A stretch of 64,000 nucleotides of DNA, from NCBI GenBank assembly GCA_017441845.1, contig JAFRVB010000004.1, positions 3,684-67,683 of the forward strand, written 5' to 3'. Under the pieces are notes generated by a model that saw only the letters and a list, made by a program, of their open reading frames with translations, made no database searches and had not been told where the DNA came from. Every line of letters begins with the position of its first letter. Position 1 is the stretch's first letter. Position numbers and translations under genes: made by a program. Positions 3,561 to 61,315 of this stretch are shown here, in pieces. The stretch comes from Bacilli bacterium (lineage in GTDB: Bacteria; Bacillota_I; Bacilli_A; RF39; UBA660).

Positions 3561-6302
3561 ATGAAAAACAAATTTTTATCTAATAAAAACAGCGAGTTTT
3601 TAAATAAAATAAAGGATAATCTTAAAGCATGTAATTCGTTTTATTTTACTGTTAGTTTCATTAAAAAGGCTGGGTTGATATTATTAGAAAGAGAAATAGA
3701 AGAAGCGTTAGAAAGAGGCGCTGTCGGTAAAATAATAACATCAACATATCAAAATTTTACTGATATAAGCTCATTAGAACAATTCTATAATTGGCAAAAA
3801 GAGTTTGATAATTTTGAATGTCACCTAGATTATGAATGTTTTGGTGAAAGTGGATATCATTCTAAGGGATATATGTTTGAATATAATGATTCATTTGAAT
3901 TTGTAGTAGGGTCATCAAATATAACAAGATTTGCACTAACAAAAAACATAGAATGGAATGTTTCTTTAATAGCTAAAGATGATTTTGATTCTTACAAAGA
4001 AGGTTTAAAAGAATTTAATATTTTATGGAATAAAACATTAGAATTAGATTATAAATTAATCGAAAAATATAAACTACAATTAGATTATGCTATTGAAAAA
4101 TGGGATATGGATTATATAAATGCAACTGATACAACTATTAACCCTAATTCTATGCAAAGAAAAGCATTGAGGGAATTAAGAAGATATAGAGATACTGGAG
4201 TGAAGAAAGCATTAATAATTAGTGCAACAGGATCTGGAAAAACATACTTGGCCGCTTTTGATGCTCGTAACTTTGGGGCAAAAAGATTGTTATATATTGT
4301 TCACAGAGAATCAATTCTAAAAGATGCTAGAGATTCGTTTATAAAAATATTTGGAGCTGAAAGAACATATGGCTTTTTCACTGGTAATGAATCAAATCAA
4401 GAGTGTGATTTTATATTTGCAACCAGTAATATGTTAGGGAGACACTTAGATGAATTTGATAGAAATGAATTTGAGTATATTATTTATGATGAAGTGCATC
4501 ACGTGGTAGCTGATACTGGTAAAAAGATTTTTGAATATTTTAAACCAGAATTTATGCTAGGCTTAACGGCTACTCCTGAAAGAATGGATAATCAAAATGT
4601 ATTTGAATTTTTTGACCAAAATGTACCATTTGAATTAAGACTTAGAGACGCGATTAATAATGATTTAGTAGTACCATTTCATTATTATGGTATTAGAGAT
4701 GAATTGGTTGATTATAGTTCTAAAGATAGAATGGTAATAGCGAAAGCAATTGCAGCACAAGATAATATAGAGTTTATTAAAGAACAAATAGAGAAACACA
4801 AAAAAGTAGGAGAAAAATTAAAATGTATTGCTTTCTGTACTAACATACAACATTGTAAGTTAATGGCTGAAGAACTTTATGAAGAAGGGTATAATACAAT
4901 ATCTTTAACAGGTATAAACGATACTGGTGTTAGAATAAAAGCATTTAAAGATTTGCAAGATGATAATAATCCTTTAGAAATAATTTGTACTGTAGATATA
5001 TTAAATGAAGGAGTAGATATACCACAAATAAATATGGTATTATTCCTACGACCAACCGAATCACAAACAGTATTTATCCAACAATTAGGACGCGGTTTAA
5101 GAAAGTACCCAGGAAAAGAATATGTAACAGTACTAGATTTTATTGGAAATAATTATGATAGAGCAGTTCAAATTGCAATGGCGTTAGGAACTTTAAGTAA
5201 TACAACATATATAGAAAAAGCATATTTAAAAGACATGATTAGTACTAATTTTAAGTCTTTAGATATACCTAATGTGTTGATAGATATTGACGATTTATCA
5301 AAAGAAGAAATAATCGAATATATTGATAAAACGAATTTTAATTCTAAAGCATTTTTAGAAAAAGATTATACTAATTTTAAGAATTATATTAATAATGGAT
5401 CATATCCAAGTCACATGGATTTCTTAAATTCAGATGTCGCCCCCGATCTAATTAGAATTATAAAAACTTCATTTAGTGGATCTAAGAATATGTCATATTA
5501 TAATTTTTTAAAAAAGATCAATGAAGAAACAATTCCAATATTCAATGAGATTGAAATAAAAATAATAAACATAGTTGAAGATTTATTACCTATTGCTAGA
5601 TTAGATGAATACCTAATTATAGAACAAGCAATAAAAGAAGGTATTATAGATTTAAAAAGATTAGAAGGACGTAATGCGCACATTACAGAGAAAACCCTTG
5701 AAAATGCATATAATAATCTAGTTAAATTGGGAGTTTTAGAAAACAATAAATTTGATTTGCTAAGAATGAATAATGATGAATTGAAAGATTATTTAATAGA
5801 TACATTGAATTATGGAATAATTAGATATAATAGAGAATTTGGTGAATATGAAGGATTGTTTAAACTATACCGAAATTACTATAAAGAACAAGCATCAAGA
5901 ATTATGCTAAAAAATGGTTTGTTGCAAAAAGGAACTTACTATGAAGATGATGTGGCATACATCTTCGCTGGAATAAAAAAAGATGAAGATGGAAAATTAA
6001 ATTATAAAGATAAATTTTTGAATAGCAAAGTATTCCAATGGGAAAGTATTGCTGATGTATCTGAAAATGAAAAAAGGAATCTAAGAAACGCTAAGAAAGT
6101 TCATTTGTTTATTAGAAAAATGGAATCAGAAGATACAGTTACTTTACCTTATACTTATTTCGGATTAGGGAGCTTTACCAACGAAAGACCATGGTATACA
6201 GAAGAAGATGGAGTAAAACACCCTACATTATTATTTGATATTATCTTGGACAATGAAGTGCCTAAAGAATATTTTGTTGATTTTGAAATATCAAATAATT
6301 AA
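3561..6302 (+). CDS. PLD-nuclease / SF2 helicase / DUF3427 fusion protein with SauUSI-like type IV (modification-dependent) restriction endonuclease architecture
   Basis: N-terminal HKD motif: YHSKGYMFE...VVGSSNIT. Helicase motifs: SATGSGKT (I), IYDEVHH (II), LTATPER (III), QQLGRGLR (VI). The C-terminal region, with FQWES... and KVHLFIRK...PYTYFGLG, is typical of DUF3427. The start is 2 nt after the Nudix stop. Confidence 0.75.
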   Translation: MKNKFLSNKNSEFLNKIKDNLKACNSFYFTVSFIKKAGLILLEREIEEALERGAVGKIITSTYQNFTDISSLEQFYNWQKEFDNFECHLDYECFGESGYHSKGYMFEYNDSFEFVVGSSNITRFALTKNIEWNVSLIAKDDFDSYKEGLKEFNILWNKTLELDYKLIEKYKLQLDYAIEKWDMDYINATDTTINPNSMQRKALRELRRYRDTGVKKALIISATGSGKTYLAAFDARNFGAKRLLYIVHRESILKDARDSFIKIFGAERTYGFFTGNESNQECDFIFATSNMLGRHLDEFDRNEFEYIIYDEVHHVVADTGKKIFEYFKPEFMLGLTATPERMDNQNVFEFFDQNVPFELRLRDAINNDLVVPFHYYGIRDELVDYSSKDRMVIAKAIAAQDNIEFIKEQIEKHKKVGEKLKCIAFCTNIQHCKLMAEELYEEGYNTISLTGINDTGVRIKAFKDLQDDNNPLEIICTVDILNEGVDIPQINMVLFLRPTESQTVFIQQLGRGLRKYPGKEYVTVLDFIGNNYDRAVQIAMALGTLSNTTYIEKAYLKDMISTNFKSLDIPNVLIDIDDLSKEEIIEYIDKTNFNSKAFLEKDYTNFKNYINNGSYPSHMDFLNSDVAPDLIRIIKTSFSGSKNMSYYNFLKKINEETIPIFNEIEIKIINIVEDLLPIARLDEYLIIEQAIKEGIIDLKRLEGRNAHITEKTLENAYNNLVKLGVLENNKFDLLRMNNDELKDYLIDTLNYGIIRYNREFGEYEGLFKLYRNYYKEQASRIMLKNGLLQKGTYYEDDVAYIFAGIKKDEDGKLNYKDKFLNSKVFQWESIADVSENEKRNLRNAKKVHLFIRKMESEDTVTLPYTYFGLGSFTNERPWYTEEDGVKHPTLLFDIILDNEVPKEYFVDFEISNN

Positions 6303-53292: not shown

Positions 53293-53763
53293 ATGGATTT
53301 TAGCGATATAGACGCATACTCGATTAGGGAGTTAACTAACTCCCAAGTAATCGAATTATTAAATAACCTTGATATAAAACCACTACTTGTATTAATTAAA
53401 GAAAACTCATATACATTAGAAGAAGAAATAACGTCTTTATTTAAGAAAATTGGTATTCCAAGTTATTTGAAGGGGTATAATTGCCTTTTAAAAGCAGTAA
53501 TCTTAATGATTGATAATGATTTTGATATATCAATCACTAAGAAATTATATCCAATTATTGCGAAAGACCTACATATGAATATTAACCAAGTTGAGAAGAA
53601 TATTCGGAAGGCTATCGAAGTATCTTGGTCTAATATAGATCCAGATCAAATAGATAAATTATTTGGTTATACCATCAACATAAATAAAGATCATCCAACT
53701 AACTCACATTTCATAATTACTATCGCAAAATATATACTAAAAACTCATAAAAGAATTGACTAA
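53293..53763 (+). CDS. Stand-alone Spo0A C-terminal (DNA-binding) domain protein, lacking a receiver domain
   Basis: IGIPSYLKGYNCLLKAVILMI ... TKKLYPIIAKDLHMNINQVEKNIRKAIEVSWS ... LFGYTININKDHPTNSHFIITIAKYI parallels the Spo0A effector domain (TK.LYP.IAK....T.S.VERAIRHAIEVAWS ... LFGYT....KPTNSEFIA). Confidence 0.8.
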   Translation: MDFSDIDAYSIRELTNSQVIELLNNLDIKPLLVLIKENSYTLEEEITSLFKKIGIPSYLKGYNCLLKAVILMIDNDFDISITKKLYPIIAKDLHMNINQVEKNIRKAIEVSWSNIDPDQIDKLFGYTININKDHPTNSHFIITIAKYILKTHKRID

Positions 53764-53817: not shown

Positions 53818-55092
53818 ATGGAACGAAAAATAGATGAATTTTTCCATAAATGGAAGAAAGACCTTATCAGAAAACCACTTATTTTATATGGACCAAAACA
53901 AGTGGGTAAGACTTTTTCTGCGCTAAATTTCGGAGAAAAAGAATATAAAAATATAGCTTATTTTAATACTGATAATAATAAAGAATTATTATCGTTATTT
54001 AAGAAAGAAAGACAAGCAGATAGATTAGTATTAAATCTATCACTTATCTGTGGAGAAACTATTCTAGAAGATGATACTCTATTAATATTTGATAATTTAG
54101 ATGAAGGAATAATTGCTAAAGGATTAAAATCTTTATCTAATCAACAAGTTAATTATCATGTTATAGGTATTACATCTCGTAGAAGTATCCTACAAGAACT
54201 AAAAGGAGAAGAATTCCAATTTAAAGGAATGTATCAATTAGATTTTGAAGAATACTTAATAGCTCATAATGAAAAATCATTAGCTGAGTTAATAAAAGAT
54301 TCATTCGCCAGAAGAAAAACTTGTCCATTTCATAAAGTAGCTATGGATCTATTTCAAAGATATATCATTACTGGTGGAATGCCAGAAGTAGTAAAAGCAG
54401 ATCTAAGAGACGCTACAGATTATGAATTAGATGCTATAAAACAAAAAATAATAGATGTTTATGAAAAAGAAGTAGTATTCAATAAAACATTAATAGATAT
54501 CCCAAGATCTCTAGATGTTATTGAATCTATTCCTAATCAATTAAATAAGAAAAATAAAAAGTTCCAATATGGAACAATCAAAACAGGTAGTAGACAAAAA
54601 GACTATGAAAAATCAATTAAATACCTAGTTGATAATCAATTAGTATATAGATCATTCAAAATAAAAGAAGTTAAATCCCCATTAACTTCATGTAAGATAA
54701 AAGATAGTTTTAAATTATATTTTCCAGATGATGGATTACTATTTACTATGTTACATTTAAATAAGAAAAAAATTATTACTGATGATGATATAAAAGAATT
54801 ATTATATGAAAATCATATAGCTAAAACTTTGACTGAAGGTGGATATTCTCTATATTATTATCAATCTGAAGGTAAAGCTGAAGTTAACTTTGTAGTTCAA
54901 AATAGACAAGGTACAATCATACCTATCGAAATAACTACTAAGAAAGATTCAAAAGCTAAATCATTATCAGTACTAATGTCTAAATATACAGTACCTCAAG
55001 GTATAAGAGTAACTGAGAATAACTTCTCAACTAAAAAGGATATTAGATATATCCCAATATATGCAGTATTCTGCTTAAATGAAAATCAATAA
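53818..55092 (+). CDS. AAA-family ATPase with a DUF4143-type C-terminal domain
   Basis: Walker A LILYGPKQVGKTF, Walker B LLIFDNLDE. Its length and C-terminal beta-rich domain (AEVNFVV...IPIEI) are typical of AAA_14/DUF4143 proteins. Confidence 0.7.
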   Translation: MERKIDEFFHKWKKDLIRKPLILYGPKQVGKTFSALNFGEKEYKNIAYFNTDNNKELLSLFKKERQADRLVLNLSLICGETILEDDTLLIFDNLDEGIIAKGLKSLSNQQVNYHVIGITSRRSILQELKGEEFQFKGMYQLDFEEYLIAHNEKSLAELIKDSFARRKTCPFHKVAMDLFQRYIITGGMPEVVKADLRDATDYELDAIKQKIIDVYEKEVVFNKTLIDIPRSLDVIESIPNQLNKKNKKFQYGTIKTGSRQKDYEKSIKYLVDNQLVYRSFKIKEVKSPLTSCKIKDSFKLYFPDDGLLFTMLHLNKKKIITDDDIKELLYENHIAKTLTEGGYSLYYYQSEGKAEVNFVVQNRQGTIIPIEITTKKDSKAKSLSVLMSKYTVPQGIRVTENNFSTKKDIRYIPIYAVFCLNENQ

Positions 55093-55117
55093 AAAACACT
55101 CACAAGAGTGTTTTTTT
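55091..55117. terminator. Bidirectional rho-independent terminator
   Basis: aacactc-acaa-gagtgtt hairpin flanked by A- and T-runs, between convergent genes. Confidence 0.8.
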
Positions 55118-56072
55118 ATTCATCGCATTTCAATATATAATTATCATAGTCTGGAGTTCTAGCATCTAAAACTAATTTCCCACTAGTATCGCTTACCCAT
55201 GTGCTAAATTTTAAATCGCCAATTTGAATATCAGCTTTTTTTCCTTTGTTTTTAGTAATAAAATCAGTTAGTTTTGCTGAATCCTTACCATTATAATCAA
55301 GCCTATTTAACGCCATAAATGCATTGGTAGGATCAGGTGCTTGTAATTGTGTAATTGTTATATATGCAATTTCATCGGTTTTTTGATAAGCACCAACTTC
55401 TATTTGATAATTAGTATCATAAGAAGAATATTCTATAGTATTACAGAATAAAGCAGATGGATTTTTTTCTCTTAAACCTGTAACACCACATAATGTTTTA
55501 TAAAAATCTTTTGCTTTAGTATTTTTAAGGTAAATAACTTTTGCCTTAGTCTTTTGTTTTTCGGTTTTTTGTTCAACTTGAGCAGAAGGAGTAGGAGTTG
55601 ACTTTGTTGTTGTAGATTCTTCAGTATCAGGAAGTAAACTTCCCCATACACAAATCAAAATAATTGGAAGTACTATTCTTAGAGCAAAAATTGTTTTATC
55701 ACCTAAATTAGTTTTGTCCGATAGTAACGTATATATACATTTAAAACAAGATAAACCTGCAATTATACCTACAATAGATACAAGGATTCCATCTGCAAAA
55801 TCTAAACTTGCTAATATTATTAAACCTCCAAAAATATATAAGGCAACAACACCAATTTTCTTAAATGTTTGCCCAGCACCATTATCAACCTGACTTAAAT
55901 TTACATCAGATTTTTTGTTTTCTATAGGTTTTTCATTTTTGATAGATTCTACAACCTTTTCATCCTTTTCAACTTTTTCAACTTTTTTTGAAGGATCATA
56001 TGGTTTTCCACATTTAGGACAAAAAGTATATTCATCTTTAAATTCATTCTTACATTTTCTACATGTTTTCAT
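55116..56072 (-). CDS. Zinc-ribbon membrane protein with an extracytoplasmic C-terminal domain, hypothetical
   Basis: N-terminus CRKCKN...FCPKCG (zinc ribbon), three TM helices, a Thr/Ser/Pro-rich linker and a ~150-aa C-terminal domain. Confidence 0.6.
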   Translation of the reverse strand: MKTCRKCKNEFKDEYTFCPKCGKPYDPSKKVEKVEKDEKVVESIKNEKPIENKKSDVNLSQVDNGAGQTFKKIGVVALYIFGGLIILASLDFADGILVSIVGIIAGLSCFKCIYTLLSDKTNLGDKTIFALRIVLPIILICVWGSLLPDTEESTTTKSTPTPSAQVEQKTEKQKTKAKVIYLKNTKAKDFYKTLCGVTGLREKNPSALFCNTIEYSSYDTNYQIEVGAYQKTDEIAYITITQLQAPDPTNAFMALNRLDYNGKDSAKLTDFITKNKGKKADIQIGDLKFSTWVSDTSGKLVLDARTPDYDNYILKCDE

Positions 56073-56080
56073 AAAACCTC

Positions 56081-56884
56081 CTATTTAAAATAACTTTCTG
56101 GAATTTCATAATTTGGTTTATCATCAATGGTCTTTTGAAGTTCATTTTTTGCTTCATCAATTTTGGCATCATAATCTAAAACAGATTGTTCCTCTTCGGG
56201 TTTTAAAAAACTACTAGGAACTTTTGTTGTAGATAATTGTTGAAGTTTACTTACAATATTTTGTGCTTCTTCAAGACGTTCATTGTATATGGGACTAGAT
56301 TGTTCAACATTTTGATTTAATACAGGAATTTGTATAAAGAAACCATTTATATCTACATTAACTCCAATAAAATTGCACATTGGAACTTCGTTTGAAACAG
56401 ATTTTCCAGAAGAAGTATTTTTGCCCATAACACCACCAGCAATTGCACCAGCAGGTCCAAGCAAAGCGCCACCAACTACAGCCTTTCCTAGAGATACATG
56501 CTTTTTTGTTTTACCAGTGGACGTTGTAATAGTTTTAAAAGAATCTTCTTTAACTACTTCAGCACCTTTTACATCAGAAAAAATATGCAAATTATCATTA
56601 ATTTTAATTTTTCCTTCAGTCATATTATATTCAAATGGTGCAGATCCACAGTTTTGCCAACGATTTTTAGTGATGGTTTCAATTTCTTTTTCTCTAGCAG
56701 TTTCCAATTCTTTTAATTTATTTTCAGCCATGGAAACTCTATTGTTGTAGTCCTTATCCTGTTCTTTGTGTATTTTTTTGCTAACATTTTCTAAATATTT
56801 AGAAAATTTTGCTTGATTAGTGCCACAGTAACCACAAAATAATTCATCATTACCTATTTCTTTTTTACATTTAACGCACTTCAT
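56081..56884 (-). CDS. Zinc-ribbon protein with a coiled coil, a bacterial PH-like segment and a glycine-zipper helix, hypothetical
   Basis: CVKCKK...FCGYCG zinc ribbon and GKAVVGGALLGPAGAIAGGVMGK glycine zipper. Start set at the Met behind AAGGAGG (revcomp of 56888-56894); the track's 56977 start adds 31 implausible residues. Confidence 0.6.
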   Translation of the reverse strand: MKCVKCKKEIGNDELFCGYCGTNQAKFSKYLENVSKKIHKEQDKDYNNRVSMAENKLKELETAREKEIETITKNRWQNCGSAPFEYNMTEGKIKINDNLHIFSDVKGAEVVKEDSFKTITTSTGKTKKHVSLGKAVVGGALLGPAGAIAGGVMGKNTSSGKSVSNEVPMCNFIGVNVDINGFFIQIPVLNQNVEQSSPIYNERLEEAQNIVSKLQQLSTTKVPSSFLKPEEEQSVLDYDAKIDEAKNELQKTIDDKPNYEIPESYFK

Positions 56885-57031
56885 AATAGCCTCCTTATCA
56901 TAGTTATTATTCCTATATAAATAATAACATAAAGGATAAAAAAAATATATAGATAAGTTTATTAATAAAATAGTCAATAAATTGACTATTTTTTATTATA
57001 AGTTTGATATAATATAAATAGAGGTGATTTT

Positions 57032-57505
57032 GTGTTAGGTTATAATGATAAAGTATTTTTATCAGTATCTAATGTAATGAATAAAGAGGGAGAAAAATAC
57101 CTAATTAATATATCTCTACCCAATAATTTTGAATATATTGGATTTCCAGATGATGTAATAAAAGTATCAGTCTATGAGAAAGAAATCAAACAATATGGAG
57201 AAGGAGATAAAGTTTTCAATATCTTAGTAGGTAAAGTAAGTACAATGGATGACTTATTTGAAGATGAAGAAATTGTTACTTTCTCTGAGATGTTAGCCGA
57301 AACAGATTATGTTAAAACAGATGATCCTGTTTGTTATTATAAAAATGACGATGGTAATTGTGTAATTTTCGCTAAGATTGAAGATGGAGATATCGTTGTT
57401 AAAGATGTAGAAGAATTAGAAGAACAAGTAATGGATATTTCATATGATTTTGAAAAAATCCAAAGAAGTATAAATAAAATAAAAAAATATGTATATAAAA
57501 AATAA
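57032..57505 (+). CDS. Acidic hypothetical protein (157 aa), first gene of the dinB cassette
   Basis: GTG start 4 nt after AGAGGTGA. It ends 13 nt before dinB. No family recognised. Confidence 0.5.
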   Translation: MLGYNDKVFLSVSNVMNKEGEKYLINISLPNNFEYIGFPDDVIKVSVYEKEIKQYGEGDKVFNILVGKVSTMDDLFEDEEIVTFSEMLAETDYVKTDDPVCYYKNDDGNCVIFAKIEDGDIVVKDVEELEEQVMDISYDFEKIQRSINKIKKYVYKK

Positions 57506-57518
57506 TTGAGGTGATAAG

Positions 57519-58721
57519 ATGAAAAGAATTATATTTCATATAGATGTTAATAATGCTTTTCTATCTTGGACTGCAGTTAAAATGTTAAATGAGGGATCCA
57601 AAGTAGATATACGAGAGATCCCTTCTGTAATTGGAGGAGATGAAAAAGCTCGTCATGGTATAGTACTAGCTAAATCTCCTGTAGCTAAAAAAATGGGTAT
57701 AAAGACTGCTATATCTTTATATGAAGCCAGAAAAATATGTCCAAAATTAAAAGTCTTTCAAGCAGACTTTTATTGGTATGGAGAATGTTCTTATAAATTA
57801 ATGAAATATTTAAGTGATTATTCTCCATCACTAGAACAATTCTCAATAGATGAATGTTTTATGGATTTTACTGGTACTAATTATCTATATAAAGACTATA
57901 TAGAATTAGCTAATAAGATAAAAGATGAAATTAAAGAAAAATTTGGTTTTACCGTTAATATAGGTATAGCTAATAATAAACTATGTGCTAAGATGGCATC
58001 TGACTTTGAAAAACCTGATAAAGTACATACTTTGTTTGATGATGAAATAGCTAAAAAACTATGGCCTCTCCCGGTAGGAGAGCTATTTATGGTGGGTAAA
58101 AGTACTACTGAAAAATTAAATAGTATGAATATTAAGACTATTAGAGATTTAGCTAATACTGATATTAAAAAATTAGAAAAAGTCTTTAAAAATCAAGCTA
58201 TTAACTTACATAATGCTGCTTGGGGAAAGGATGATTCACCAGTAGAAAGCGAAAGAAGAAAGAGAAAAAGTATCAGTACTGAGACAACTCTACCTAATGA
58301 TGAAAATGATAGAGATAAATTAAAGAAAATATTATTCTCTCAAAGTGTTGAAGTAGGTAGAAGCCTAAGAAGAAAAAAGATGTATGCTAAAACTATAGGT
58401 ATTATCTATAAAGATTTAAAATTTAGAAGAACATCTAATCAAACTACTATAGATAATCCTACTAATGATGATAAAGAGATATATAAAGTAGTATCAGATC
58501 TATTTGATTCTACTTATAACGATGAATATATACGACTAATTGGTGTAAAATTAGCTAATTTACAAGAATCAAAGGAGAAACAAATCTCAATATTTGATAA
58601 AATAGAAGAAGAGGATGATATATTCCAAGAAACTATAGATAAAATAAACAATAAGTTTGGTAAAAACATAGTTGAACCAGCATCCTTAAAAGTAATCACT
58701 GATAATAAGGAGGAGAAGTAG
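57519..58721 (+). CDS. dinB: Y-family DNA polymerase IV
   Basis: IFHIDVNNAFLSW (N-terminal catalytic Asp), SIDECFMD (DE catalytic pair), NKLCAKMASD, and HhH-like and little-finger regions. Confidence 0.85.
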   Translation: MKRIIFHIDVNNAFLSWTAVKMLNEGSKVDIREIPSVIGGDEKARHGIVLAKSPVAKKMGIKTAISLYEARKICPKLKVFQADFYWYGECSYKLMKYLSDYSPSLEQFSIDECFMDFTGTNYLYKDYIELANKIKDEIKEKFGFTVNIGIANNKLCAKMASDFEKPDKVHTLFDDEIAKKLWPLPVGELFMVGKSTTEKLNSMNIKTIRDLANTDIKKLEKVFKNQAINLHNAAWGKDDSPVESERRKRKSISTETTLPNDENDRDKLKKILFSQSVEVGRSLRRKKMYAKTIGIIYKDLKFRRTSNQTTIDNPTNDDKEIYKVVSDLFDSTYNDEYIRLIGVKLANLQESKEKQISIFDKIEEEDDIFQETIDKINNKFGKNIVEPASLKVITDNKEEK

Positions 58722-59695
58722 TGGAATTTAATTTTTCAGACATAAGTAACCTTTCTGAAGAAGAATTACTAGAAAGATTAGATCATAATCAAAGAACAGC
58801 TGTCTTCAAGAAAAGTGAATTAGAAAAATTAAAAAGTGTTAAAAATAAAAAGAAGATTGTTATCGAAACACCTCCTAAGACTTTTAGTGTGCCTAAAGAA
58901 GTATTAAAAGAAGAAGTAATAAAAGATGATTTAGATGATGAAACAGATGAATTTGAAGATGCTATAGAGTATTATTTATCAAACTTAAGAGAATTAGATA
59001 TTAATAGTATTACTAATTTAGAAGATGAATTACCACCAAGAGAACACTATGATTATAAAAAGATAATCTTAAGATTATTAATAGAATATAAAAAAGAGAT
59101 TAATGAAATAAAAGAGGTTATTGATGAAGATAAATCCTTATCAAAAGAAGAATTAATAGAGTTAAAAGAAGATATTAATAAGAATAATAAGATGATGAAA
59201 CTCTTAAAAAAATCTCTTGAACCAGTTAAAGAAGAGAAAAAAGAGCAAAAACAAAAGAATAATATAATATTTGCTAAAACTCCTGGAGGCAATGTAAGAG
59301 TAATAGAAGAATTAGAAAGTATTCCTTCAGAGTACTATCCATTATTTCAAGAATTATTTGAATCTATTGAAGATGGCACATTCAAAGGAATTAAAAGATT
59401 TACTAATAATGATGCTTTAAAAGGTACATTAGAAGTAAGAGAATTTAAAGTAAGAGTAGTATTTGCTAAATTAAGTAAGAGAGATTATATGGTTATTACA
59501 GCTTTTACTAAGAAAGTAACTAATGATAGGGGTTATTTATTACCAGTTAAAGCAAAAATATCAGAATATAGACAAGAAGAAAAAACTATTAAAGAAAAAG
59601 TAGGAGATCCTTCATTTCAAGAAGAAAATAAAGAATATAGAGATAGATTATTCTCTATGTTAGATACTAAAAAGAAGAAGGAGAAGGCACTATGA
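58721..59695 (+). CDS. Coiled-coil protein with a C-terminal RelE/ParE-superfamily (HigB/Gp49-like) domain
   Basis: Residues 181-285, IIFAKTPGGNVRVIEELESIP...LKGTLEVREFKVRVVFAKLSKRDYMVITAFTKKV...AKISEYR, follow the Gp49/HigB pattern (F..t..G..pv.efl ... L.g..glyElR....yRv.f......ivll.aF.KK). The GTG start shares its G with the dinB stop codon. Confidence 0.5.
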   Translation: MEFNFSDISNLSEEELLERLDHNQRTAVFKKSELEKLKSVKNKKKIVIETPPKTFSVPKEVLKEEVIKDDLDDETDEFEDAIEYYLSNLRELDINSITNLEDELPPREHYDYKKIILRLLIEYKKEINEIKEVIDEDKSLSKEELIELKEDINKNNKMMKLLKKSLEPVKEEKKEQKQKNNIIFAKTPGGNVRVIEELESIPSEYYPLFQELFESIEDGTFKGIKRFTNNDALKGTLEVREFKVRVVFAKLSKRDYMVITAFTKKVTNDRGYLLPVKAKISEYRQEEKTIKEKVGDPSFQEENKEYRDRLFSMLDTKKKKEKAL

Positions 59696-60450
59696 CAATA
59701 GAAGAAATTAAGAAAATAGCCCAAGATAGAATAGAAGTGTTAAAGCTTTCTTTAGAAGAAGAATCTCCATTATATGAATACTATAAAGAGTTTTTTGAAG
59801 AACATCCATTTAATAAAAAAACAGATTTATTAAATATATCAAGAACTGATCTAATGACTGCTTTCTTACTAACAACAGATCGTTTTGATAATATTAGTAA
59901 TTTAAATTTTGATTGTATAACAATGAGTCAACTTTTAGAAAGAGTATCATATGAAAACTTATATGAATGTATTTTAGCTGTAGATAAATATCTAGAAAAT
60001 TCATCAAAAGAAGAAAGACATTATAAAAAAATATTCTCTAAAATGAATAAAGGAGAATCTGATATTTATGGAGTATTTGCTCCATTAGGAGATACTATTA
60101 CTAATCAATCAAGAATAAAACTATTAGCTAAATATATCAATGAATATGAAACAGATATGACAGATGCTCTATTTCTCGCAACTATAGTTAATTATATTGA
60201 AGAATGCAAAGATAATGTAGATAAAGAATATCCAAATATAAGTGATAGAGAAAGAACTAATAAATATATGAGTGAAATTACTCATAAATTAGATCTTAAA
60301 CTATTTAATAAAAGTATAAATATAATTAAAGAATACTATAGAAAACTAAGTAATAAAGAAGTTAATAATAAGAAACAAATCCAAAGAGATATCAGAGGAT
60401 ATGAAAAAGTATTAAATGAAATAGATAGTATATTGATCAAGAAGAAATAA
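59692..60450 (+). CDS. Helical hypothetical protein (252 aa)
   Basis: ATGA overlap with the upstream stop codon. No family recognised. Confidence 0.5.
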   Translation: MTIEEIKKIAQDRIEVLKLSLEEESPLYEYYKEFFEEHPFNKKTDLLNISRTDLMTAFLLTTDRFDNISNLNFDCITMSQLLERVSYENLYECILAVDKYLENSSKEERHYKKIFSKMNKGESDIYGVFAPLGDTITNQSRIKLLAKYINEYETDMTDALFLATIVNYIEECKDNVDKEYPNISDRERTNKYMSEITHKLDLKLFNKSINIIKEYYRKLSNKEVNNKKQIQRDIRGYEKVLNEIDSILIKKK

Positions 60451-60650
60451 AGAATTATAAGAATTTCATCAAGAATATAACAGATGAAACTATAATATTA
60501 GAATTCTTAAAACTAGTTTATAAACATAATAATGAGTATTATGAAAAATTAAATAAAGAACATAAAGTTATCAATGAAGATACTAAACTACATTACTATG
60601 CCTTATTAGAAAAATATGGTATTTCAAAAGATGAAGTAGATTTATTCTCA

Positions 60651-61259
60651 ATGATGGAACACAATCTTGAAGATTTATCTGAAATGTTAAAAGAATTACA
60701 TAAAATAAGTGATAATAAAGACTTTGTTATTAAAGGTATTCAAGAAAGTAATATAGCTAGAATAAAAGACTTAGTATCATTAAAAGATAAAGGATTTATA
60801 TGGAGTCATTCTATTTATGAAAATGCTGATTTATTAGAATTAGATAGTGATAAATATAATAAAATGATTAATAGTATAGACTATGTTAATGAAAAAGGTC
60901 TAAATCCAGGAATATTTATAGATGAAGTAGAACTATTAATGGATGATAATAACATCAAAGAAAAAATAGATCTACTAGAAAAAGAAAACAAACTAATTCA
61001 ATTAAAAAATACTGAGAGTTATGAATTCTTTAATAATGATCATCTAAAAGAAAAAATAAACCTAATACGTAGATTAGATTTAGATAGATTTATGAAGGAT
61101 GATTTAGATTTATTAAATGAAGAAAACCTAGAAAGAGTAATGATACTAGGTGAAATAGACTATGAAATAGAAACTAAAGAAGAATTAATTGGTATACTTA
61201 GAGATGATAAATTCATAGTACCTGATAATAAAATAAATGATTATATCTTTAAAATATAA
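60651..61259 (+). CDS. Helical-repeat hypothetical protein; the reading frame is open from 60429 with no canonical start before 60651
   Basis: The first ATG is at 60651 with no clear SD. The same frame is stop-free for 74 codons upstream and overlaps the end of the preceding ORF, so this may be the 3' part of one larger gene. Confidence 0.4.
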   Translation: MMEHNLEDLSEMLKELHKISDNKDFVIKGIQESNIARIKDLVSLKDKGFIWSHSIYENADLLELDSDKYNKMINSIDYVNEKGLNPGIFIDEVELLMDDNNIKEKIDLLEKENKLIQLKNTESYEFFNNDHLKEKINLIRRLDLDRFMKDDLDLLNEENLERVMILGEIDYEIETKEELIGILRDDKFIVPDNKINDYIFKI

Positions 61260-61261
61260 AA

Positions 61262-61288
61262 AAGTTTGTATAAAGTGCAAACTTTTTT
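61262..61288 (+). terminator. Rho-independent terminator
   Basis: aagtttg-(9-nt loop)-caaactt hairpin followed by a T-run. Confidence 0.7.
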
Positions 61289-61315
61289 ATTTACGAAAAT
61301 TTATTAAAAAAGTCC

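Follow-up and report, generated by a model that had tools for sequence, protein, structure and literature searches.

What kind of unit is formed when a gene for a DNA polymerase is packed tightly together with genes for proteins of no assigned function? This question was raised by a 64,000-nucleotide stretch of DNA (the window) from a gut-associated lineage of Bacilli (RF39; UBA660), comprising positions 3,684 to 67,683 of the forward strand of contig JAFRVB010000004.1, assembly GCA_017441845.1. Here, a Y-family DNA polymerase gene, dinB, is flanked by three partner genes, designated p1, p3 and p45, in the order p1-dinB-p3-p45. A first-pass annotation had proposed that the block might be a novel mutagenesis or DNA-damage-tolerance module, or else a polymerase recruited into a toxin-like or defence context. 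The analysis presented here indicates that the block is probably a composite, or patchwork, operon that has grown around a housekeeping polymerase gene, and not a new mutagenesis machine. This reading was preferred because p1 on the one hand, and p3 with p45 on the other, are distributed independently of dinB.

Gene structure of the locus

Five open reading frames (ORFs) were listed on the + strand, at 57032–57505, 57519–58721, 58721–59695, 59692–60450 and 60651–61259. The first has a GTG start and encodes p1, a protein of 157 amino acids (aa) with an isoelectric point (pI) of 4.4; the second is dinB (400 aa), and the third, also with a GTG start, encodes p3 (324 aa). The ORF listing, the pI and the Pfam matches confirmed the acidic 157-aa protein and the Y-family polymerase that had been annotated, and the junctions were also as first described. 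There is a spacing of 13 nt between p1 and dinB; dinB and p3 overlap by their stop and start codons (taGTG, 58719–58723), with AAGGAGGAG ahead of the overlap; and p3 overlaps the next frame in the same manner (ATGA, 59692–59695), with GGAG ahead of the overlap.

The count of five genes had to be revised to four, since the last two ORFs are a single gene. This gene, p45 (59692–61259, + strand), encodes one acidic protein of 522 aa (pI 4.9) from an uncharacterised family, and is split in the window by a missing T. The fifth ORF can be extended upstream in frame as far as 60429 without a stop, and this extension offers no ATG, GTG or TTG start. Orthologues of p45 are single proteins of 522–526 aa, and five further clusters of close homologues fall within that range; there is one gene of 524 aa at this position in G004, a genome of the same genus, and p45 is intact in contigs L063 and L065/L066 and in one contig of GCA_016648615. 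When the window was aligned with L065, a 1-nt gap was seen at approximately 60436. Contigs from four public gut-metagenome runs (X1–X4) placed the difference between 60432 and 60433, where they have an extra T and are otherwise identical to the window over as much as 4.5 kb; adding this T produces a read-through frame of 522 aa. As the T is carried by the X1–X4 contigs and by the relatives, the split was interpreted as either an assembly or consensus error in this metagenome-assembled genome (MAG), or a minority allele, and it is probably an error. Programmed frameshifting at the junction of the fourth and fifth ORFs was ruled out, given that there is no slippery site and that the extra T occurs in the assemblies of four runs.

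Conservation of dinB

Judged from its sequence, dinB (57519–58721, + strand) is a Y-family polymerase gene of the DinB/PolY type. Its product matched PF00817 (IMS, E = 2e-37), PF11799 (IMS_C, E = 1.6e-25), PF21999 and PF11798, and includes a helix-hairpin-helix (HhH) element. The catalytic residues are intact (D8 within FHIDVNNAF, and the D-E pair within SIDEC), and residues 355–359 (QISIF) fit the beta-clamp motif Qxx[LIM]F, and so represent a putative clamp-binding motif. NCBIfam models of DNA polymerase IV were matched, but no finer subfamily was assigned because the scores were below the equivalog cut-offs, the best being those for PRK03103 (307.9 bits against 381) and PRK01810 (297.3 against 399). 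There was no likeness to ImuB, nor to the ImuA-ImuB-DnaE2 mutasome in general: the polymerase retains its catalytic residues, whereas ImuB is catalytically dead, and no Pfam match to RecA/ImuA or DnaE was found among the partners.

Orthologues of dinB were present at the conserved locus in 37 of 41 relatives, with 47–82% identity. The gene order tpiA-Spo0A(_C)-AAA14-(gpmI)-dinB-...-rpsJ recurred in three genomes from the same genus (G001, G002 and G003), and the same neighbourhood, from tpiA to rpsJ, was found in members of other genera (G014, G017 and G024). At the dinB neighbourhoods of all of these genomes, p1, p3 and p45 were missing; in total, the partners were lacking beside dinB orthologues from three genomes of the same genus and four of other genera. 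No other Y-family gene was detected in the MAG, which is 67% complete, and the ratio of nonsynonymous to synonymous substitution (dN/dS) for dinB, estimated between the window and L065, was 0.11, which reflects purifying selection. These comparisons indicate that dinB is a vertically inherited, housekeeping core gene of the family.

Distribution and affinities of p1

The family of p1 (57032–57505, + strand) consists of approximately 42 clusters, all of them 153–160 aa long and all unnamed. It was found only in this bacterial family, in 11 of 401 genomes (about 3%), and in none of 400 genomes at class level; p1 therefore fails to co-occur consistently with the polymerase, which was present in 37 of the 41 relatives. 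The AlphaFold2 (AF2) model, with a predicted local distance difference test score (pLDDT) of 84 and a predicted template-modelling score (pTM) of 0.79, is rich in beta strands between residues 8 and 123, followed by a long C-terminal helix. Foldseek searches returned no significant match to this orphan protein (best E = 0.29 in PDB and 0.09 in BFVD); a PDB sequence search with a p1 profile gave coiled-coil or chance matches only. Across 43 family members, there was no match to YolD (PF08863) or Peptidase_S24 (PF00717) at E <= 1, nor to any Imu Pfam model, and NCBIfam likewise produced none. On the evidence of the Pfam and NCBIfam scans, it was correctly noted at the outset that the partner proteins do not resemble UmuD, YolD, ImuA or ImuB.

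Within the clade to which the window belongs, p1 always occurs directly upstream of dinB. In L059 and L072, two tandem p1 paralogues accompany dinB and p3/p45 is absent. Outside this clade, adjacency of p1 and dinB was seen in one other genus, represented by G080, where a p1 homologue and dinB converge next to a gene for an HD-domain protein (L119, 5256–7621), at a locus unrelated to tpiA-rpsJ. The cluster in G080 adjoins an IS3-type transposase. Other remote homologues of p1 adjoin HD_3, NUDIX, Fic/PemK, NTPase_I-T and other genes.

It may be asked on this basis whether the polymerase has in p1 a true small subunit or a regulator, that is, a functional analogue of UmuD' or YolD, or an inhibitor, with p3/p45 as an unrelated passenger. 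The constant position of p1, 13 nt upstream of dinB throughout the clade and sometimes in duplicate, is consistent with such a role, as is the second and independent adjacency in G080, where the arrangement is convergent and the locus different. The protein is rich in beta strands, and its best Foldseek matches, though weak and non-significant, were small beta-barrels (e.g., Tudor, IF1 and CusF); SH3-like beta cores are present in YolD and UmuD' (PMC6511836). The neighbours of p1 elsewhere include enzymes of the nucleotide pool (HD_3, NUDIX and NTPase_I-T), and a LexA-like box present in the dinB promoters of two p1-less relatives is missing where p1 is present (see below). Yet most genomes with an orthologous polymerase do without p1, the same-genus genomes G001–G003 among them, and the majority of p1 homologues are located away from dinB. 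Moreover, p1 is 34% identical between the window and L065, despite 94% identity for DinB, and synonymous divergence (dS) is 1.17 for p1 against 0.31 for dinB; such divergence between strains is odd for the partner of a conserved enzyme.

A precedent for the gene order exists in the yqjX-yqjW and yolD-uvrX pairs of B. subtilis, in which the gene for a Y-family polymerase of a Gram-positive species is likewise directly preceded, in one operon, by a gene for a small beta-rich protein (PMC6511836). The differences are that p1 gives no YolD or S24 signal, that no LexA box was found upstream of p1 or dinB in the window, and that YolD co-occurs with its polymerases almost perfectly (204 of 207), compared with the scarcity of p1 in its family. 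A role for p1 in polymerase function was considered unlikely; the link is kept alive as a minority hypothesis by the adjacency in G080.

A RelE/HigB-like domain in p3

The third gene (58721–59695, + strand) was initially grouped with the unknown proteins, a description that no longer applies. The AF2 model of p3, based on 12 homologues, consists of N-terminal helices, a domain with the RelE/HigB fold and C-terminal helices. Overall pLDDT was 78, rising to approximately 90 for residues 181–263. The domain spans residues ~178–268 (59252–59524, + strand) and has a beta-alpha-alpha-beta-beta-beta topology, assigned by DSSP as strand 181–184, helices 193–199 and 203–218, and strands 236–241, 244–250 and 255–263. 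The top Foldseek matches were to HigB of S. pneumoniae (6af3 and 6af4; E = 1.2e-4 for 6af4), with a probability of 0.99–1.0; RelE from M. tuberculosis (3g5o, TMt 0.79; 9g12), HigB1 (7nbu) and RelE from M. jannaschii (3bpq) were also matched with probabilities in this range. Matches to HigB2 (5jaa, probability 0.75), Cami1, BrnT and ParE2 were weaker.

Sequence searches gave fainter signals. The window copy of p3 had no Pfam match and did not reach the thresholds of the Pfam and NCBIfam toxin models; single relatives touched ParE_toxin (E = 0.022) and RelE_StbE (E = 0.0057). A profile of p3 retrieved coiled-coil or chance matches alone from PDB sequences, while a profile of the domain ranked HigB (6af3) first among 177,635 PDB sequences, but with E = 0.26. 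Among homologues, two residues, R245 and K264, never vary and a third, E238, hardly does; R245 and K264 align with the Arg and Lys of HigB in '..RILF..FMKR'. The assignment of the predicted domain to the RelE/HigB fold is regarded as solid because of the Foldseek matches, the ranking by the domain profile and the aligned, invariant Arg and Lys. If it works as its structural relatives do, p3 would be an RNase active on ribosome-bound mRNA. Its dN/dS was 0.26 (window against L065), again reflecting purifying selection. In G004, stop codons interrupt the N-terminal part of the p3 orthologue (L007, 7175–8145), and the 201-aa ORF that is left retains the RelE-like domain; p45 is intact there. Shorter p3-like genes also exist without p45, one of them followed by a small ORF resembling a helix-turn-helix (HTH) protein.

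The p3/p45 pair

The family of p45 comprises 638 clusters at 50% identity, with members typically of 600–650 aa and a range of 522–690 aa. Members from the window's clade are shorter (522–526 aa): they lack some 90 aa that form a C-terminal tail in most homologues, and this tail carries a strongly conserved motif, T-x-RTY-x-I-x-GV-x-ISKNKV-x-RNL. Neither p45 itself nor an analysis of 74 relatives gave a consistent Pfam match, or any NCBIfam or significant PDB-sequence match; a p45 profile searched against PDB sequences picked up coiled-coil or chance matches alone. Repeats of ~32 aa in the C-terminal half, suspected by eye of being mTERF-like, were discounted when hhalign gave probabilities below 3% between segments. 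The two halves of p45 evolve at different rates, dN/dS (window against L065) being 0.47 for the N-terminal half, which is the faster, and 0.18 for the C-terminal half.

At 27 of 29 loci, the gene immediately ahead of p45 was p3-like, usually with overlapping codons, and 48 of the 401 genomes from the family, drawn from 44 genera, contained the pair. Two tandem p45 paralogues follow one p3-like gene in G088 (L053, 5394–9021) and G272 (L135). At least six copies of the pair lie directly upstream of rplU-ysxB-rpmA; the pair in the window lies upstream of the S10 operon. By contrast with this tight pairing, dinB occurred within flanks of ~8–10 kb at just one of 20 loci (G085, at a distance of 3.6 kb), where ~0.3 would be expected, and an association of p3/p45 with dinB was rejected as not significant. 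On this distribution, p3/p45 is a self-contained, two-gene module, independent of dinB.

As in a type II toxin-antitoxin (TA) system, the two genes are adjacent, co-oriented and conserved as a unit, but p45 does not match the small, labile type of antitoxin, in which a DNA-binding or neutralising domain can be recognised. The closest structural comparison is with HigB-HigA (S. pneumoniae HigBA, 6af3/6af4). Likenesses include the fold of the p3 domain (Foldseek probability 1.0, E = 1e-4), a toxin-like gene preceding its partner with overlapping codons, and the conserved Arg and Lys that align with HigB. However, p3 is 324 aa long, with an N-terminal helical extension of ~170 aa and a helical tail at the C-terminus, and p45 has no HTH or ribbon-helix-helix (RHH) antitoxin domain and is 5–6 times larger. 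Cami1, a fusion of CARF and RelE domains (8phb), similarly has a RelE-fold domain within a larger, multidomain protein, although p3 has neither a CARF domain nor a CRISPR context, and the Foldseek match was weak (E = 0.2–0.4). By analogy with toxin-antitoxin pairs, p45 might bind p3 and restrain or otherwise regulate it.

Alternatively, p3/p45 may not be a TA system at all, and might instead be a conserved pair of ribosome or translation factors, with a RelE-fold domain that docks on the ribosome, whether or not it also cleaves. This would suit the positions of the pair upstream of ribosomal-protein operons (both rplU-ysxB-rpmA and S10), its retention in reduced genomes of ~1 Mb across at least 44 genera, the purifying selection on it, the very large, conserved partner with its 638 clusters, and the lack of mobile-element genes nearby. 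Its distribution is patchy, however: the pair is present in ~12% of genomes and is missing from relatives of the same genus. Furthermore, G004 has an intact p45 beside a broken or truncated p3, p45 is duplicated in G088, and the fast-evolving N-terminal half of p45 is better suited to an accessory, conflict-type system. A translation-factor role was therefore thought doubtful, and a TA-like pair remained the preferred interpretation.

Transcription signals and SOS control

The promoter suspected upstream of p1 was located: an extended -10 element, TGaTATAAT, is at 57005–57013 (+ strand), followed by a Shine-Dalgarno (SD) sequence, GAGGTGA, at 57021–57027 (+ strand), and TGnTATAAT occurs at the same place in four related lineages (the window, G004, L065 and L059). 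The terminator predicted at the 3' end was verified as well; the sequence at 61256–61290 (+ strand), a 16-bp hairpin with a U-run that closes the operon, folds at -14.1 kcal/mol (z = -6.3), and 0 of 200 shuffled sequences were equally stable. With such signals at either end, p1, dinB, p3 and p45 are predicted to be co-transcribed as a single unit, from promoter to terminator.

Directly upstream of the promoter is a hairpin, AUAGUCA..UGACUAU, between A and U runs (56967–56992, + strand; -9.3 kcal/mol, z = -5.2), which is kept ahead of p1 in G004, L065 and L059, with an A-to-G change that retains a G-U pair on the + strand. The U-run and the change preserving G-U pairing disfavour the idea that this conserved palindrome is an operator, and for the same reasons a terminator-like or insulator-like RNA element is more likely.

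LexA is encoded in the genome, and its own operator is GAACAATTGTTT. A search for a LexA-type operator upstream of 57032, as advised by the first-pass annotation, found no GAAC-N4-GTTC box within one mismatch near 56880–57520, and none was present upstream of p1 in the p1-bearing relatives either. In relatives without p1, LexA-type boxes overlap the dinB promoters of G008 (L048, GAACCTATGTTT) and G003 (L047, GAAAAAATGTTC). Given these boxes, and their absence from the p1-bearing clade, the operon appears to be outside SOS control, and control of dinB by this route appears to have been lost in that clade.

This bears directly on the view that all four genes form one dedicated machine for DNA-damage tolerance or mutagenesis. 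Tight translational coupling, a single promoter, a single terminator and a gene order kept within the clade are all features that such a machine might display, but its three components are distributed independently, there is no LexA box even though LexA is encoded, and no likeness to UmuD, YolD, ImuA or ImuB was seen. A four-gene machine is largely refuted by synteny and was judged highly improbable; the novel module first envisaged was set aside, the partners being syntenic with dinB only in one narrow clade below genus level, and the LexA operator being absent.

Comparison with dinB-yafNO

In E. coli, the yafNO genes, an mRNA-interferase locus homologous to RelE, are transcribed from the dinB promoter (PMC2814082). 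The closest precedent for the arrangement in the window is accordingly dinB-yafN-yafO-yafP, where a Y-family polymerase gene is followed by a RelE-homologous module, as it is here within one predicted transcription unit. The first-pass idea of a polymerase in a toxin-like context therefore holds in a weaker sense: a gene with the RelE/HigB fold is translationally coupled to dinB, much as yafNO is co-transcribed with dinB (PMC2814082). The two cases also differ in several respects. The E. coli operon is LexA-controlled while the operon in the window has no LexA box; the antitoxin gene comes first in E. coli and encodes the small protein YafN, whereas the toxin-like gene comes first in the window and its partner has 522 aa; and the modules are unrelated in sequence. 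Since the window arrangement is limited to one sub-genus clade, it arose independently of dinB-yafNO. To our knowledge, the linkage in E. coli is still without a functional explanation.

Flanking genes

The AAA_14/DUF4143 ATPase gene upstream of the operon (53818–55092) matches the PADLOC candidate PDC-S01 (E = 1.6e-111). It looks like a core gene rather than a mobile defence gene, because it is kept at exactly the same locus across genera. This observation is relevant to a further alternative, in which the block belongs to an anti-phage defence island and either p1 or p3/p45 is an abortive-infection system. The locus is variable, p1 is hypervariable, the adjoining ATPase resembles a defence candidate, and RelE-fold effectors such as Cami1, itself a weak match to p3, are known in defence systems. 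Set against this, PADLOC gave no match for p1, dinB, p3 or the fourth ORF, and a marginal match to Cas4d alone for the fragment of p45 in the fifth ORF (E = 0.0011, 16.5 bits); PHROGs scans found nothing significant for the partner proteins; there are no integrase or phage genes; and the ATPase is conserved in position. A defence island was considered very unlikely.

Between the ATPase gene and the operon in the window is a variable insert (55116–56977), consisting of two minus-strand genes of the zinc-ribbon/DUF4352 type. Relatives have in this position a 541-aa protein resembling a surface protein, or nothing. Candidate ribbon-helix-helix (CopG-like) genes were identified by eye directly upstream of p1 in G004 (L007, 5131–5415) and, similarly, directly upstream of dinB in G003 (L047, ~5430–5620); no such gene is present in the window, where the two zinc-ribbon genes adjoin the operon. 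The Spo0A-like gene is receiver-less in the window's genus (53293–53763 in the window; 122–156 aa, with Spo0A_C only). At the same locus in G014, G017 and G024, the orthologues are 247–268 aa long (L049, 9991–10785; L050, 11172–11978; L051, 2106–2849), and their additional N-terminal part appeared receiver-like by eye.

Origin and significance of the operon

The sequence of events favoured by these observations would begin with a vertically inherited dinB at a variable site, flanked by the glycolytic/AAA14 block on one side and the S10 operon on the other. In one sub-genus clade, two unrelated accessory units would have been added and compacted with it into one transcription unit: p1, a small and fast-diverging protein, would have been placed in front of dinB, and the p3/p45 module behind it. 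DinB is most likely an ordinary, beta-clamp-dependent translesion polymerase, with no need of p1, p3 or p45. In the module, p3 would act in the manner of HigB or RelE by cleaving ribosome-bound mRNA, and p45, as an obligate acidic partner of 522 aa, would bind p3 and restrain or regulate it, the order of toxin before partner being that of HigB-HigA.

Several observations weigh against this account. The order p1-dinB-p3-p45 is kept in diverged lineages (the window, G004, L063, L065/L066 and the contig of GCA_016648615), and the overlapping junctions in the clade imply that co-expression has been maintained. A remote p1 homologue abuts dinB at a different locus in another genus, G080, and our rough estimate of the chance of a second adjacency of this kind is ~2%. 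As for p45, it is unlike any known antitoxin and far larger. Finally, the sole RNA trace of the operon is one metatranscriptome contig of 220 nt, which lies on p1.

A more ambitious interpretation would combine two roles, p1 being a new small beta-barrel protein that diversifies fast, serves the polymerase as a subunit or regulator and has replaced LexA control in this clade, and the translationally coupled p3/p45 linking translation arrest to translesion synthesis. We regard this combination as quite unlikely. If true, it would amount to an independent re-invention of the logic of E. coli dinB-yafNO, with a new family of partners (the 638 clusters of p45) regulating a RelE-type nuclease.

On the composite reading, which we prefer, the case shows how a core repair gene and genes unrelated to it become joined in a tightly packed operon. 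Its worth is in p3/p45, as an uncharacterised family, and in the orphan p1, rather than in any machinery built around DinB. With its orphan fold and hypervariable sequence, p1 has met dinB twice independently, and merits follow-up. So does the p3/p45 pair: conserved across dozens of genera in an uncultured family of gut Bacilli, and often beside ribosomal-protein operons, it may represent a new way of controlling a nuclease that depends on the ribosome.

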